Shown here: positions 2,777 through 21,265 of the stretch, piece after piece
How positions within the stretch are numbered: the first letter of the stretch is position 1
How the letters are laid out: every line of letters begins with the position of its first letter
Sequence record: OR845257
Length of the DNA: 58,949 nt
From: Escherichia phage ECO95 1-6-1
Direction: 5' to 3' (one strand)
Notes under the pieces: model-generated
The model's database searches: none
What the model saw: only the letters and a program-made list of their open reading frames with translations
What the model was told of the DNA's origin: nothing
Program-made: the position numbers and the translations under genes

Positions 2777-2805
2777 TTGACAGATGTCAAGCCCGGATAT
2801 AATAT
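2777..2805 (+). promoter_or_regulatory. sigma70-type promoter TTGACA-N17-TAATAT for the primase operon, with palindromes TTGACAgaTGTCAA and CGGATATAATATCCG over the -35 and -10
   Basis: perfect -35, near-perfect -10, 42 nt upstream of the ATG at 2848. Confidence 0.65.
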
Positions 2806-2847
2806 CCGCAAATCTATAACACGCGCACATTACGCGAGGGCATCACT

Positions 2848-3129
2848 ATGCGATTTCCAGATTGGGCTTTAAACGACGACCGTATGCGGGTCAAATTTCT
2901 TATGATGCAAGCGGCTTTGGAGGTAGACCCGAATGCCAGAATGGCCGAACTGGCGAAGGCAGCGAAGATCAGTTACCCGACATTGTTATGGGCTGTGCAG
3001 AACAACGTAACGAGCAGCGTGGCCGAGAAAGTTTGCAAAGCCGTCCCTCACTGCGGCATCCGTCCGCATTGGCTGACTAACCCTTCATGGATCAAAACGG
3101 ACAGCGAAACAGGGGAAATCCTTGAATGA
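2848..3129 (+). CDS. small putative DNA-binding protein (HTH-like segment)
   Basis: 93-aa ORF directly downstream of a consensus promoter; stop overlaps the primase start (ATGA). Confidence 0.45.
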   Translation: MRFPDWALNDDRMRVKFLMMQAALEVDPNARMAELAKAAKISYPTLLWAVQNNVTSSVAEKVCKAVPHCGIRPHWLTNPSWIKTDSETGEILE

Positions 3130-5711
3130 ACTACTGGCAAGAGTACGGCGAAACGCTTTGGGGGAATGGGTACACCATCGTACCTATCTACGCCCCGGAC
3201 GCCGATAAGAAGGGCGCGGGCAAACGCCCCATCGGCGAAGATTGGGAAAGAACAATCAATGATAAGGAGCAGATCCAGCGTTGGGCGAAACGCTATACGA
3301 ATAACGGCATCGGGATTCTGACCAAATACACCCCGGCGGTTGACATCGACGTTTACGATGAAGACGCCGTGGCGCACATGGCTGACTGGATCGCCGAGAA
3401 CGTCGGTGCAGCGCCATGTCGTATCGGCCGGGAGCCGAAGAAACTCTACCTGTACCGAACCGAAAACCCGTTCGCCAAAGTTAAGTCCGGAGTATGGGAA
3501 GACGATTTCGGTCAGCGCCATGCCGTTGAAATCCTCGCCGACGGACAGCAGTTCGTTGCGTACGGTATTCACCCGGACACCAAGCGGGACTATTACTGGA
3601 TTGACGGCGAAAACCCGCTGAACAATGCCGCCGACCTTGACCTCGAAGAGATCAGCCTCGATACCGCGCGCGAGATCGCCGCCGAATTCGACCGATACGC
3701 GAAGGACTTGGGCTGGACGATGGTCAAACGGCCAATGAACGGCTACGAGTCTATCGGTTCGGCCGACGATGACGATTGGGCCGCGCTGTCTGACGTCAAA
3801 AAGTGGGACGGCACGTACGATGAACTGCGCGACATCGTCCTGAAATACCCGAACCCGGAAGATTACGAGAACTACATCACCGTACTGGCCGCGCTGCAAA
3901 TTTCCTGCCGCGATCAGGACGAGGCGAAGGCCATTGCACGCGAATGGGCCATGCAGGCGCACAACTTCGACGAAGGTGATTTCGAATACAAATGGGATAA
4001 GGGCTTCGCGCACAACTCGACTCGACTGATCACGCTCGGCACCATCATCAAAGAAGTGCAGGACATCGAGAAAGCCGAGCAGGAAGAACGCGCCATCGAG
4101 TACCGCGAGGCTTTCGCCGAGTGTACCGAGGCAAATGACTGGAATGCGTGGGCTGAATCATTCAAAAAAGCGCAGATTTTCGGGCTTACCCGCAAGGCCA
4201 TCGTCCAAATCGCAGCCGAGTCGTACCGCAGGATCAACAACTTTCGTCTTACTGCGGGCGACAAAAGGGAGCTTTTGGGCTTCGATTACGGGTCAAAAGA
4301 GACTCCGCAATGGTTGAAAAACTTCGTTTTCTCGAAGGCAAATGACAGTTTTATCGAAAAATCCACAGGCGATTACATCACAAAAGGCGCTTTCGACGTC
4401 GCTTTTGCGAAAAAATGCGTATTTGAGGAAGAATCCTTCAAGCCTGTCCACTATGCGTCGGTAGTCCGCCCGGTTCCCATCGTTTGGGACGCGATGTATT
4501 ACCCGGCGATGCACGGTGACATGCCGGAATCAGTATGGAAGCCGAAAGAAGGCGTGCTCGGGCCAGAATTCTTTATCGACGAGCGCGGTCGTACGTGGCT
4601 GAACTCTTTCGACCCTGAATCTATCCCGGAAGCCGCGACTGACCTGTCTCCGTACGACAAAAAGGCGCTGGAGATCATCAAAGACTTCTTCATCGTGCTT
4701 TTCCCGAACGAGAAGGAACGCCGATACGTTATCGACTGGATGGCATGGGTTATTCAGCACCCGACGAAGCGTATTAACTACTCGCTTCTGATCCGTGGGG
4801 CGCATGGCTCCGGCAAAACGACACTCGGCATCATCATGTCGCGGATGCTCGGCCCGTCTAACGTGGGTTACGTGTCAAACACCGTGATGAATGGCCGTTT
4901 CAGCGATTGGGCCGAGGGCCACATCCTGAAAATCGTGGAAGAGATCTACGACAAAGGCGATCGGTACAGCGCGGTGGAACGCCAGAAGGAATTCATCACA
5001 AACGACCGCTTCCAGATTGAGCCGAAGGGCCGCAAGCCAAAGGAAGTCGTGAACACCAGCAGTAAAATGATGTTCACCAACCACTTTAATGCGTTGCCAC
5101 TCGATGAAAACCAGCGTCGTTATCTGGTGGTGTCCACGCAGGCGGAAAATCATCTGGACATGGAGCGGGTTTACGGGTCGAAGACTGAACGCGCGCGCTT
5201 CTTCAAAAACGTGTACCGGGCAATCGAAAACCACGCACCTGCTATCAAAAAGTGGTTCCTCGATTGGGAGATCGGAAAGGATTTCGATGCCAAAGGACAC
5301 GCACCGCAGGACACCGAAGCATTCGCGGTCATGGCCGACGCGTCTGACGATGGCGTGGAAGGCGCAATTGCACAAATGCTTCGTGACGGAACGACGCCGG
5401 GCGTACACCGCGACGTCATCTTCGTGCCGTCCCTGAAAAACGCCTTCCTCGAAATGACAGACGTGGAAATGCCGAAGACGAACCGCCTGAAAAACATGCT
5501 TATGGAATTGGGCTTCAAGCCGGGCGGCGTGGTCAAGTTTGGCGGCGATTCTGGCCGCGTTTATGTCCGGAAGCGGGTAAAAGGGGCATTCGACGACGCG
5601 GGTAAACTTAACTCGTCGTGGGTGCAGACTACGTTAAAACGGCATGACGCAGACGTCGAAAAACTGGTCGGAAAAAAGTCAGACCCGTTTGACGATGAAG
5701 ACGAAGTTTAG
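3126..5711 (+). CDS. primase-helicase (prim-pol N-domain, D5_N-like region, P-loop helicase); ends ...DDEDEV
   Basis: 861 aa; Walker A GAHGSGKTT; prim-pol-like N-terminus; acidic C-terminal tail. Confidence 0.8.
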   Translation: MNYWQEYGETLWGNGYTIVPIYAPDADKKGAGKRPIGEDWERTINDKEQIQRWAKRYTNNGIGILTKYTPAVDIDVYDEDAVAHMADWIAENVGAAPCRIGREPKKLYLYRTENPFAKVKSGVWEDDFGQRHAVEILADGQQFVAYGIHPDTKRDYYWIDGENPLNNAADLDLEEISLDTAREIAAEFDRYAKDLGWTMVKRPMNGYESIGSADDDDWAALSDVKKWDGTYDELRDIVLKYPNPEDYENYITVLAALQISCRDQDEAKAIAREWAMQAHNFDEGDFEYKWDKGFAHNSTRLITLGTIIKEVQDIEKAEQEERAIEYREAFAECTEANDWNAWAESFKKAQIFGLTRKAIVQIAAESYRRINNFRLTAGDKRELLGFDYGSKETPQWLKNFVFSKANDSFIEKSTGDYITKGAFDVAFAKKCVFEEESFKPVHYASVVRPVPIVWDAMYYPAMHGDMPESVWKPKEGVLGPEFFIDERGRTWLNSFDPESIPEAATDLSPYDKKALEIIKDFFIVLFPNEKERRYVIDWMAWVIQHPTKRINYSLLIRGAHGSGKTTLGIIMSRMLGPSNVGYVSNTVMNGRFSDWAEGHILKIVEEIYDKGDRYSAVERQKEFITNDRFQIEPKGRKPKEVVNTSSKMMFTNHFNALPLDENQRRYLVVSTQAENHLDMERVYGSKTERARFFKNVYRAIENHAPAIKKWFLDWEIGKDFDAKGHAPQDTEAFAVMADASDDGVEGAIAQMLRDGTTPGVHRDVIFVPSLKNAFLEMTDVEMPKTNRLKNMLMELGFKPGGVVKFGGDSGRVYVRKRVKGAFDDAGKLNSSWVQTTLKRHDADVEKLVGKKSDPFDDEDEV

Positions 5712-5716
5712 TCGAT

Positions 5717-5747
5717 AAAAAGGCCGGACTTCCCGGCCTTACTTTTT
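5717..5747. terminator. bidirectional rho-independent terminator between convergent primase-helicase and HTH genes
   Basis: 8-bp GC-rich stem (AGGCCGG/CCGGCCT), 5-nt loop, A-run upstream and T-run downstream. Confidence 0.7.
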
Positions 5748-20273: not shown

Positions 20274-20491
20274 CCATGAAAATCCCCGCAGGAGACGTTA
20301 AGCCGGGCGTACTCGCGACCATCTTTGGCGAGCAGTTCCGCCTTCGCTATATCACGTATCACAACGTCGGCAGCGTGACGCTGAGATTCCAGCCGGGCGA
20401 CGAACCGCTGTCACCGTTCACCGAGAATGACGTGTTGACCATGACCGTTTCGCGCACATTTGAAGTCGAGGTGGACAGCGATGGCCGATAG
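20270..20491 (+). CDS. hypothetical protein
   Basis: ATGA-coupled start inside ORF 20246-20491. Confidence 0.4.
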   Translation: MTMKIPAGDVKPGVLATIFGEQFRLRYITYHNVGSVTLRFQPGDEPLSPFTENDVLTMTVSRTFEVEVDSDGR

Positions 20492-20735
20492 CGAGTTAGA
20501 ACTGAAAGCAGGCCGCACGTATCGCGGAAAACGGCCGCAGAACCGAAACGGACTGGTGAACGACCGCACCATCCTGTACATCGGGGCCACGCACATCCAG
20601 TACGACGGCCCGGTCGTAGGCTTCGGCCGACACTATCCGAGTTGTACCCGCGAAGCGTTCCTGAAATGGGCCGAGCGCGACGTGACTGACGAATTACCGA
20701 AGGGAGAATATGCAGAATGGCCGATAAAAAATTGA
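20481..20735 (+). CDS. hypothetical protein
   Basis: internal Met start overlapping the upstream stop. Confidence 0.4.
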   Translation: MADSELELKAGRTYRGKRPQNRNGLVNDRTILYIGATHIQYDGPVVGFGRHYPSCTREAFLKWAERDVTDELPKGEYAEWPIKN

Positions 20736-21229
20736 GATTCGGACACCTCGAAACGGGCGACATGACGCTGGAGCGTAACAGCATCCGTATCGGGTACAGC
20801 CCGGAAGTAACCTTCGCCGTGAAACGACGCGTAGAGCGCACCACGCTGACGCAGGTCATCGTAGGGAATACGCGATACCGGAAGGATGATGGCCGCGCCA
20901 TTGGCGAAGCCGGGTGCCTGTTTACCGAGGACGACATCGGTGAAGGGAAAACGGTCAATATCGAGATCGTAACCGAGGCAGAATTCCGGGAGATCCGAAG
21001 CCTGTTCTACGAATTCAAGGAAGGCGTGCTGGCCGCGTGCGCCGGGTACGAAATCACCGCGACGGACTTGGCCGTCCTGTTCCGCGACCGGGAAGTGCGC
21101 GAAGGGTTAGTGGCGCGCTGGCGGAAAACGAAGGAGACGATCGCCGACCTGCACAAACAGACCCGTGATTTCATGGTCGAGAAGGGCCACGGTGATCGAC
21201 TGGAGCACGCCCGGAAAAGAAAGTCTTAG
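20717..21229 (+). CDS. hypothetical protein
   Basis: 170-aa ORF. Confidence 0.5.
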   Translation: MADKKLRFGHLETGDMTLERNSIRIGYSPEVTFAVKRRVERTTLTQVIVGNTRYRKDDGRAIGEAGCLFTEDDIGEGKTVNIEIVTEAEFREIRSLFYEFKEGVLAACAGYEITATDLAVLFRDREVREGLVARWRKTKETIADLHKQTRDFMVEKGHGDRLEHARKRKS

Positions 21230-21236
21230 AAACTGT

Positions 21237-21265
21237 TTGACACACGTCGCGTGTATAACCTATAT
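21237..21265 (+). promoter_or_regulatory. sigma70-type promoter TTGACA-cacgtcgcgtgtataac-CTATAT (or TATATT with 18-nt spacer)
   Basis: between gene stop 21229 and gene 21310. Confidence 0.55.

Follow-up and report, generated by a model that had tools for sequence, protein, structure and literature searches.

We analysed a window of 58,949 nucleotides, the whole stretch of DNA taken from Escherichia phage ECO95 1-6-1 (sequence record OR845257), and in particular a family of promoters with a conserved sequence between the −35 and −10 hexamers that had been predicted between positions 2,777 and 21,265. The window comes from a Chi-like phage of the genus Chivirus (Casjensviridae), and Megablast comparisons over positions 2700-22000 gave 97% identity to Salmonella phage SeF2 and 93% identity to Chi. 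Its genes are in the same order as in Chi: gp3-primase and the helix-turn-helix (HTH) gene gp1 are followed by two leftward operons of small genes without known function and by four rightward operons (Table 1), and the lysis, structural and replication genes are on the minus strand. The cohesive-end sequence of Chi, 5′-GGTGCGCAGAGC (PMC4342425), was found as its reverse complement at 6701-6712, and the non-coding stretch of about 1.1 kb at 6089-7250 therefore spans the cohesive-end site (cos). It follows that the virion DNA has its right end in the coordinates above 6712 and its left end in those below 6701.

In the related phage JS26, RNA sequencing showed expression of the leftward cluster, which adjoins the genome end, at 5 min (early class), and expression of the rightward cluster at 20 min (middle class; PMC8754663). 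By synteny with JS26, the two leftward operons of the window would be of early type and the four rightward operons of middle type, and the terms are used below in this sense. Transposon sequencing has led to the suggestion that the genome end bearing the early leftward cluster enters the cell first (bioRxiv 10.64898/2025.12.19.695335).

Six promoters carry a palindrome in a fixed register

The original prediction listed seven elements. All seven are present in the sequence, and six of them are, by their sequence, good σ70-type promoters. Each of the six lies in the intergenic gap before a co-oriented run of genes, and has a TTGACA or TTGACG −35 hexamer, a spacer of 17-18 nt and a −10 hexamer in which the second base is A and the sixth is T; a UP-like, A-rich stretch lies directly upstream. 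The consensus pattern of the original prediction, TTGACRYACGYCGCGTRTA, was matched 11 times with up to three mismatches, against an expectation of 0.22, and this count was not reached in any of 100 shuffled sequences.

At the level of purines and pyrimidines the spacer motif is a 17-bp palindrome, AYRYACG-N3-CGTRYRT, which all six promoters match with at most one mismatch. Perfect matches to this pattern number six in the window, against an expectation of 0.025. If one mismatch is tolerated the count rises to 11, against 0.6, and is made up of the six promoters, four promoter-less copies described below, and a single site at 33928 that is at chance level. In all six promoters the palindrome begins with base 4 of the −35 hexamer and stops about 3 nt short of the −10 hexamer, covering approximately −32 to −16, and the register was the same in every relative examined. 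In common with repressor operators of the Cro/CI and Arc type, the site has dyad symmetry within the range of 14-21 bp and overlaps DNA contacted by RNA polymerase. What had been described as two separate forms of the spacer are subtypes of this one palindrome, with CACGCCGCGTATATCA found in the two leftward early-type promoters and the promoter-less copies, and YACGTCGCGTGTA in the four rightward middle-type promoters.

The seventh element, at 6157, lacks a −10 hexamer. It lies about 70 bp upstream of a mosaic allele of gp1 and is not found in Chi; it is a degenerate copy of the family and no credible promoter. The claim that the elements head every early and middle transcription unit holds for the six units of the right arm and fails for the gp3-primase promoter, P2777, and for its σ70-like divergent partner near 2687, neither of which has the motif. 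The −35 hexamer of P2777 lies within a separate perfect palindrome, TTGACAGATGTCAA (2777-2790), which has no conserved counterpart ahead of gp3 in Salado, SAP012 or PM87.

Table 1. Coordinates of genes, promoters, operators and end features in the window
Feature	Position	Strand	Sequence or elements	Remarks
P2777, gp3-primase promoter	2777-2805	plus	σ70-like	operator-free; negative control for the family
gp3-primase	2848-5711	plus		Chi-like layout
gp3	2848-3129	plus	93 aa, probable Cro/CI-type HTH	gene overlaps primase start
gp1 (HTH)	5747-6088	minus		Chi-like layout
Element 6157	6157-6185	plus	TTGACGTACTTCGCGTGATA; TGGTGC at −10 position	4 mismatches to palindrome
Cohesive-end sequence	6701-6712	minus	reverse complement of Chi sequence	match to Chi cos
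Operator array, four copies	6950-6966, 7023-7039, 7071-7087, 7130-7146	plus		start-to-start 73/48/59
P9515-operon intrinsic terminator	7159-7186	minus	stem GGCCGCC/GGCGGCC then U-run	−18 kcal/mol
Two leftward operons	7253-12172	minus		Chi-like layout
P9515	9487-9515	minus	TTGACG, 17-nt spacer, TTATAT	heads operon 9424 to 7253
P9515 operator	9496-9512		ACGCACGCCGCGTATAT	early-type subtype
P11916	11888-11916	minus	TTGACG, 17-nt spacer, TTACAT	heads operon 11822 to 9550
P11916 operator	11897-11913			same sequence as P9515 operator
P12512	12512-12540	plus	TTGACA, 17-nt spacer, TATTGT	heads 12583-15686
P12512 operator	12515-12531		ACATACGTCGCGTGTAG	
Four rightward operons	12583-23805	plus		Chi-like layout
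P15824	15824-15852	plus	TTGACG, 17-nt spacer, TAATAT	heads 15876-19016
P15824 operator	15827-15843		ACGTACGTCGCGTGTAC	
P19026	19026-19054	plus	TTGACA, 17-nt spacer, TAATAT	heads 19094-21229
P19026 operator variant	19029-19045		ACATACGCGACATGTGT	1 mismatch
P21237	21237-21265	plus	TTGACA, 17/18-nt spacer, CTATAT/TATATT	heads 21310-23805
P21237 operator	21240-21256		ACACACGTCGCGTGTAT	perfect match
Lysis, structural, replication genes		minus		Chi-like layout

Promoter-less copies form an array at the right cohesive end

Four further copies of the palindrome, overlooked in the original prediction, have no usable −35 or −10 hexamer and keep the 17-19 bp core. Measured from their centres they are 245-425 bp inside the right cohesive end, and their subtype is that of the two early-type promoters. 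The position of cos places this operator array at the right end of the genome, and a second set of repeats, the TTGTAAC iterons described below, at the left end. When promoter copies are compared with array copies, identity is 0.78 within the 17-bp core and drops to 0.20 and 0.26 in the adjoining 17 bases on the two sides. As identity is confined to the core, it appears that the core is kept for its own sake, independently of any promoter. In the direction of transcription the array comes directly after the intrinsic terminator of the P9515 operon, and an equivalent terminator is annotated in Seifer.

Two observations concern the surrounding DNA. Short repeats, CACCATA and GCCGCCATACG, are interspersed with the operator array (6880-7110), and the non-coding region 6790-7190 is unusually well conserved among Chivirus genomes.

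Substitutions avoid the specified positions of the palindrome

The ten sites were compared in seven Chivirus genomes. Variable columns were less frequent in the operators (12 of 170) than in the flanks (55 of 400; Fisher p = 0.023), and transitions alone accounted for 11 of the 12 variable operator columns, as against 21 of the 55 flank columns (p = 0.0009). All 12 operator changes fall at position 4 (Y), at positions 8-10 (the N3 centre) or at position 17, and the ACG and CGT cores were unchanged in 70 of 70 instances. When IMG/VR was scanned with the exact 17-mer, matches were obtained in Chi-like contigs only, apart from three unrelated and probably chance matches.

Promoters and array change together among genera

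Strong σ70 promoters with a palindrome in the same register were found in every genus examined, and the sequence of the palindrome differs from genus to genus. The end array shifts together with the promoters of its own genome in Redjacvirus, Enchivirus and Yonseivirus (and in Salado), and more loosely in Lavrentievavirus. In PSTCR9 (Redjacvirus, from Providencia) the promoter sequence is ACATACG-CCG-CGTATGT, a perfect palindrome, and four array copies lie about 250-500 bp from cos. Enc34 (Enchivirus) has the promoter sequence ACATACG-CGG-CGTGTGT and about four end copies, two of them within one mismatch of the pattern. The Klebsiella phages Salado, Seifer and N98-like contigs, of which Seifer and N98 belong to Yonseivirus, have a 19-bp palindrome, TGCACNCG-N3-CGNGTGCA, with three to four end copies. 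A genome-wide search of Salado allowing up to two mismatches gave five matches only, namely its two early-type promoters and three right-end copies (0.5 expected), and promoters and array match each other in Seifer as they do in Salado. In PM87 (Lavrentievavirus, from Proteus) the spacers read TTGACACC..., and the ACACC(C) half-site of its promoters is repeated at the end together with two inverted copies of the early spacer. JS26 (Dunedinvirus) has middle promoters with ACAKGC-N5-GCMTGT and a three-copy terminal repeat. Variation of the array with the promoters of its own genome is the signature of a shared trans-acting reader.

All ten sites are of the Chivirus type in members of that genus, whether they come from Salmonella, from Serratia (Smarc6) or from Klebsiella aerogenes (Phraden); in Yonseivirus phages of Klebsiella pneumoniae the type is TGCAC. 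The type of motif thus tracks the lineage of the phage and not its host, which argues for a phage factor over a host factor.

Two of the genomes call for separate comment. Seifer (NC_048732) is a natural hybrid, with a Yonseivirus backbone and a Chivirus-like left-end module of iterons, gp3 and primase that has approximately 78% nucleotide identity to window 2162-5747. In the record of SAP012 (LC553736) the cos sequence is followed directly by AGATCGGAAGAGCGTCGTGTAGG, which is an Illumina adapter; the right-end region of this record is therefore unreliable and could not be used for comparison of arrays.

A separate set of repeats lies inside the left cohesive end

About eight copies of TTGTAAC(C/T), on both strands, are found at 6205-6495, just inside the left cohesive end, and flank a strongly AT-rich segment (6300-6420). 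The iteron is TTGTAAC in Chivirus and Seifer, TTGTTAC in Salado, and TTGTAAT in Enc34 and N98. Since it varies with the gp3-primase module, gp3 or primase is the likely reader of the iterons, and neither is a likely reader of the spacer operator. To judge from its repeats and base composition, the TTGTAAC/AT-rich region is likely to be a replication origin. Three repeat systems can thus be told apart near cos, each with a likely partner: the iterons with gp3-primase, the array with the right-arm promoters, and the immediate flanks of cos itself with terminase.

Sequences downstream of the promoters

P9515 and P11916 have about 55 nt in common, including the leader TTAAATTCCCTTCGGGGG. At P19026 and P21237 a hairpin followed by a U-run begins 2 nt past the −10 hexamer (19055-19093, z = −4.2, and 21266-21309, z = −2.2, respectively). 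This was not seen at the other four promoters; the arrangement is also present in Salado, Enc34 and SAP012. A transcript from P19026 or P21237 would begin inside the 5′ arm of the hairpin, so that the hairpin may stop only read-through from the upstream operon. The two hairpins may therefore belong to compact, overlapping promoter-terminator units that terminate upstream read-through alone.

The early-type leader (9460-9486 and 11861-11887, minus strand) contains a CCC-UUCG-GGG tetraloop hairpin near its 5′ end, and a near-identical leader is found 3′ of the early promoters in the distant phage JS26 (L022, approximately 6380 and 3040). From this sequence likeness the hairpin may be a conserved 5′ stabiliser or a regulatory element. 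An Rfam search of the window, leader hairpin included, gave no match.

Candidate binding proteins

Two proteins had been put forward as possible binders of the spacer, the HTH protein gp1 and the small protein gp3, and neither fits the comparative data; gp1 was rejected and gp3 is disfavoured. The first is an Xre-type HTH protein (HTH_37). Its gene and upstream sequence (5747-6360) form a mosaic module that has been replaced relative to Chi (L004 355-940): homology to the left end of Chi stops at window 6358, and the window module bears element 6157, the Chi module ATAACAAATTTGTTAT. The gp1 proteins of the two phages are only 31% identical despite identical operators, the gene is absent from Enc34, which nevertheless has operators and an array, and the ATAACAAATTTGTTAT sequence in the Chi gp1 promoter is a distinct palindrome of its own.

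The gp3 protein was initially favoured. It is helical, with an HTH-like segment; an AlphaFold2 model (predicted local distance difference test score, pLDDT, of 65) matched Xre, Cro and controller-protein folds only, all of them non-significantly (E of at least 0.3), and its homologues gave sub-threshold matches to HTH_26 and CII. Variants of helix 3 at first appeared to follow the type of operator, before the comparison with Seifer. The gp3 of Seifer is Chivirus-like (84% identical, helix SYSTLLWATQNN), yet its operators are of the Klebsiella-phage type and identical to those of Salado and N98, in which the gp3 helix reads NYDT(L/M)(L/I)WNIRNT. In Seifer, gp3 therefore follows primase and the TTGTAAC iterons, not the operators.

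Other proteins were considered as well. In the small terminase subunit, which would make the array a cosB-like site, the N-terminal 105 residues, in the DNA-binding half, are approximately 97% identical between Chi and Salado, while the arrays read ACGCACGCCGCGTATAT and TGCACTCG..GTGCA respectively; this subunit was rejected as the binder. A basic protein of 77 aa (15173-15406) is too conserved across genera with different operators. The homology pattern of the DUF7609 protein (12583-12954) suits a binder, and its model (pLDDT 73) is without any fold match. No polymerase-modifying or sigma-like gene was detected.

Acidic C-terminal tails of the form (D/N)(D/E)EV (AENDEV, ADDDEV, DDDEV) were noticed on several unrelated proteins, namely gp1 (5747-), the DUF7609 protein (-12954) and the small terminase subunit of Chi (L002 1165-1734). 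The tail is invariant among DUF7609 homologues. By analogy with the acidic tails of T7 replication proteins, these tails could be a common docking motif for one partner.

Interpretation of the spacer and the array

The spacer is probably a 17-bp operator for a phage-encoded, sequence-specific protein, itself a probable dimer, that would most likely turn down early and middle transcription. The original prediction had offered two readings, an operator for a phage regulator or a recognition element for a modified RNA polymerase. The promoter-less array, the palindrome, the co-variation, the link of motif type to phage lineage and the substitutions favour the former, without the binders that had been proposed for it. 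The latter is not borne out, as the −35 and −10 hexamers and their spacing already come close to the consensus and the motif is also found where there is no promoter. We infer protein binding, a dimeric state, repression and a phage origin of the binder from the sites and their statistics, symmetry and register, their co-variation across genera, and the pattern of substitution.

In the mechanism that we propose, a phage protein, probably dimeric, would occupy one operator at each of the six strong σ70 promoters that drive the 17-kb right arm. Near-consensus hexamers, optimal spacing and UP-like A-tracts imply that these promoters need no activator, and a protein seated on the −35 region and spacer of such a promoter would be expected to exclude RNA polymerase. 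As the protein accumulates, steric repression would turn down early and middle transcription in a coordinated manner, and the early and middle operator subtypes, with different affinities, could stagger the shut-off. The same protein would also occupy the four-site cluster inside the right cohesive end, beyond the last early-operon terminator. There the array could set timing as a titration sink, shield cos and the ori-like region from read-through as a roadblock or insulator, or form a structural complex at the genome end that is probably the first to enter the cell.

A further proposal is that one dual-role protein both represses the early and middle promoters and forms a nucleoprotein complex on the four-site cluster at the end that is probably the first to enter. 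Acting as a titration timer or a cos/ori insulator, for instance, such a complex would tie the timing of transcription to the entry, circularisation or packaging of the DNA. We regard this dual role as rather unlikely. As no DNA-binding domain is detectable in the right arm, such a protein would be of a fold family not yet recognised as DNA-binding. The possibility that either the binder or the array will turn out to be less ordinary is a real one.

Several results weigh against the operator explanation. No open reading frame (ORF) of the right arm has a known (Pfam) DNA-binding domain, gp1 and gp3 are disfavoured, and the 77-aa basic protein and the DUF7609 protein gave no support. Repression is the most likely effect, and it is argued over other effects from position and promoter quality only. 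The phage SP-030 has a T-to-C change at operator position 17 in five copies, a concerted change that could come from gene conversion among repeats and not from selection by a protein. The three-copy end repeat of JS26 is not convincingly related to its early promoters. Within Chivirus the right-end non-coding region is conserved throughout and the array cores do not stand out in the alignment, which makes the within-genus alignment of the array uninformative.

Alternative explanations

It is unlikely that there is no dedicated binder and that the promoters are duplicated cassettes, resembling the PeSL cassettes (early promoter plus stem-loop) of T4-type phages and homogenised by duplication and gene conversion, with the array made up of decayed promoters. 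The shared 55 nt of P9515 and P11916, leader included, and the promoter-plus-hairpin units at P19026 and P21237 are consistent with such an origin, as are the third array copy of Chi, which reads TATCAATTACA and resembles the −10 region of P11916, and the concerted change in SP-030. Conversion should, however, homogenise the flanks, whereas identity falls exactly at the edges of the core, and decayed promoters should not keep a perfect spacer while losing both hexamers. Palindromy, a fixed register and an array kept in five genera with differing sequences are not needed for recombination, and substitutions avoid the specified positions. Another explanation is that the binder is a replication initiator, the array being an origin or part of one and the promoter copies allowing the initiator to shut off early transcription. 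Parallels are plasmid Rep proteins, which bind an operator as well as iterons, and the T antigen of SV40, which binds the origin and is also a repressor of the early promoter. This we hold to be improbable, and it is a special case of the operator explanation, not a contradiction of it. The array has four dyad-symmetric repeats of about 19 bp, as in the λ origin, and after ligation of cos it would lie within about 700 bp of the iterons and AT-rich region. It has no AT-rich stretch adjoining its four repeats, however, and the AT-rich segment at 6300-6420, flanked by TTGTAAC repeats that follow the gp3-primase module, is a better candidate for an origin; an origin in the array is rated lower for that reason.

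Recognition by a host transcription factor or nucleoid protein, through which the phage would sense host physiology, is equally improbable. The failure to find a phage binder fits this explanation, and the ACG-N3-CGT core is common to phages of Salmonella, Providencia, Hafnia/Enterobacter and Klebsiella. Precedent exists in the CtrA sites reported for flagellotropic phages of Alphaproteobacteria (PMC9437464). Against a host factor, phage lineages from one and the same host genus (Phraden versus Seifer and Salado) have different outer arms, Chivirus phages of different host genera have identical ones, and the palindromes of PM87 and JS26 are unrelated and yet stand in the same register. The operator is not known to match the consensus of any E. 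coli regulator; in a comparison by eye, it fitted none of the consensus sequences of σ28 (FliA) promoters, FlhDC, FNR, PurR, NtrC, MetJ or the mar-box. Reading of the spacer by RNA polymerase itself, either modified by the phage or responding to a spacer tuned for promoter strength or supercoiling, would account for a conserved block inside promoters in a fixed register, and a G+C-rich sequence of alternating purines and pyrimidines could affect spacer twist. This is very unlikely: four to five copies are without a −35 or −10 hexamer, the Klebsiella-phage version lacks the alternation, the motif is missing from P2777 and P2687, which are served by the same polymerase, and no gene for a polymerase modifier or sigma-like factor was detected. 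Z-DNA or a cruciform was rejected, the alternation being broken at the centre and absent from the Klebsiella-phage type. A MerR-type activator that binds the spacer was rejected on the spacer length, which is 17-18 bp and not the over-long 19-20 bp that calls for untwisting.

Comparison with known systems

Mobile replicons in which several promoters share one operator type are well known. In phage P22 the small protein Arc binds as a dimer/tetramer to a dyad operator of approximately 21 bp between the −35 and −10 hexamers of Pant and blocks polymerase. The operator described here is similarly placed, at −32 to −16 of a strong σ70 promoter. Arc, however, serves one promoter pair in the immI region of a temperate phage, as opposed to six promoters over 12 kb and a four-copy end array, and, in contrast to Arc, no ribbon-helix-helix or HTH candidate survives the tests made here. 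The Cro proteins of λ and 434 turn down early σ70 promoters through pseudo-palindromic operators of 14-17 bp that overlap promoter elements. There, too, operator sequences diverge among related phages, together with the protein. These temperate phages have operator triplets at two promoters beside the regulator gene, whereas the present virulent phage has one operator at each of six promoters and an extra array at cos. KorA and KorB of RK2/IncP plasmids act through one palindromic operator type over many promoters, and KorB has a second role, outside transcription, as a ParB. Partial overlap with core promoter elements and extra copies away from promoters are common to both systems. RK2 is a plasmid with known proteins, unlike the present case, in which the array lies at a phage cohesive end, and no ParB- or KorA-like gene was detected in the window.

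The stoperators of mycobacteriophages L5 and Bxb1 are asymmetric sites of 13-14 bp, numbering 20-30 or more, that lie in one orientation inside transcription units and bind the temperate immunity repressor. They too are dispersed copies of one repressor site, some of them outside promoters. Stoperators of this type were rejected here, as the ten sites are symmetric, all lie in promoters or in the terminal array and none is inside an operon. In λ, cosB consists of R sites bound by the small terminase subunit gpNu1. In both cases several repeated sites are found no more than a few hundred bp from the cohesive-end site, but those of λ are not shared with promoters, whereas the present array has its sequence in common with them. 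PeSL cassettes combine an early promoter with a stem-loop and act as recombination points in hyperplastic regions (PMC2839356, PMC4122927). Like them, P19026 and P21237 are repeated, conserved promoter units, joined to a stem-loop, that head modules of small genes. Mosaic junctions were noted separately, at the gp1 module and at the gp3-primase module of Seifer. PeSL cassettes differ in having no palindromic spacer core that occurs alone, whereas here conservation is confined to the 17-bp palindrome.

We found no description of these promoters, or of any Chi-like promoter motif, in the literature searched. The promoter family is new, as are its purine/pyrimidine-degenerate palindrome and strict register, the presence at the cohesive end of an array that varies with the promoters, and the lack of any binder that can be recognised. 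Chi is a classic flagellum-dependent phage, and its relatives in the Casjensviridae are under development for use against Salmonella, Klebsiella, Proteus and Providencia. The ten sites and their single consensus yield a precise and testable regulon, the operator can serve as DNA bait for fishing out the regulator, and operator variants from different genera can be used as natural specificity swaps. For engineering, the six promoters could provide compact, strong and, to judge from their sequences, probably switchable parts.

Further observations on the intergenic regions

The divergent gap that separates the leftward from the rightward set of operons is occupied by five direct repeats of CTTACTTSAAAAASYTRYCCGGYTG (12215-12461; spacing 51/71/43/49), where 0.01 matches are expected. 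They are possibly sites for a second regulator, a pause site for DNA entry, or iterons. An ORF annotated over these repeats in SeF2 is probably spurious. In the non-coding DNA around cos, SeF2 is annotated with hypothetical singleton ORFs corresponding to window 6563-7130 on the minus strand, and one of these, a small ORF at 6563-6817, crosses the cohesive-end site; the small minus-strand ORFs across 6563-7130 are probably not genes.

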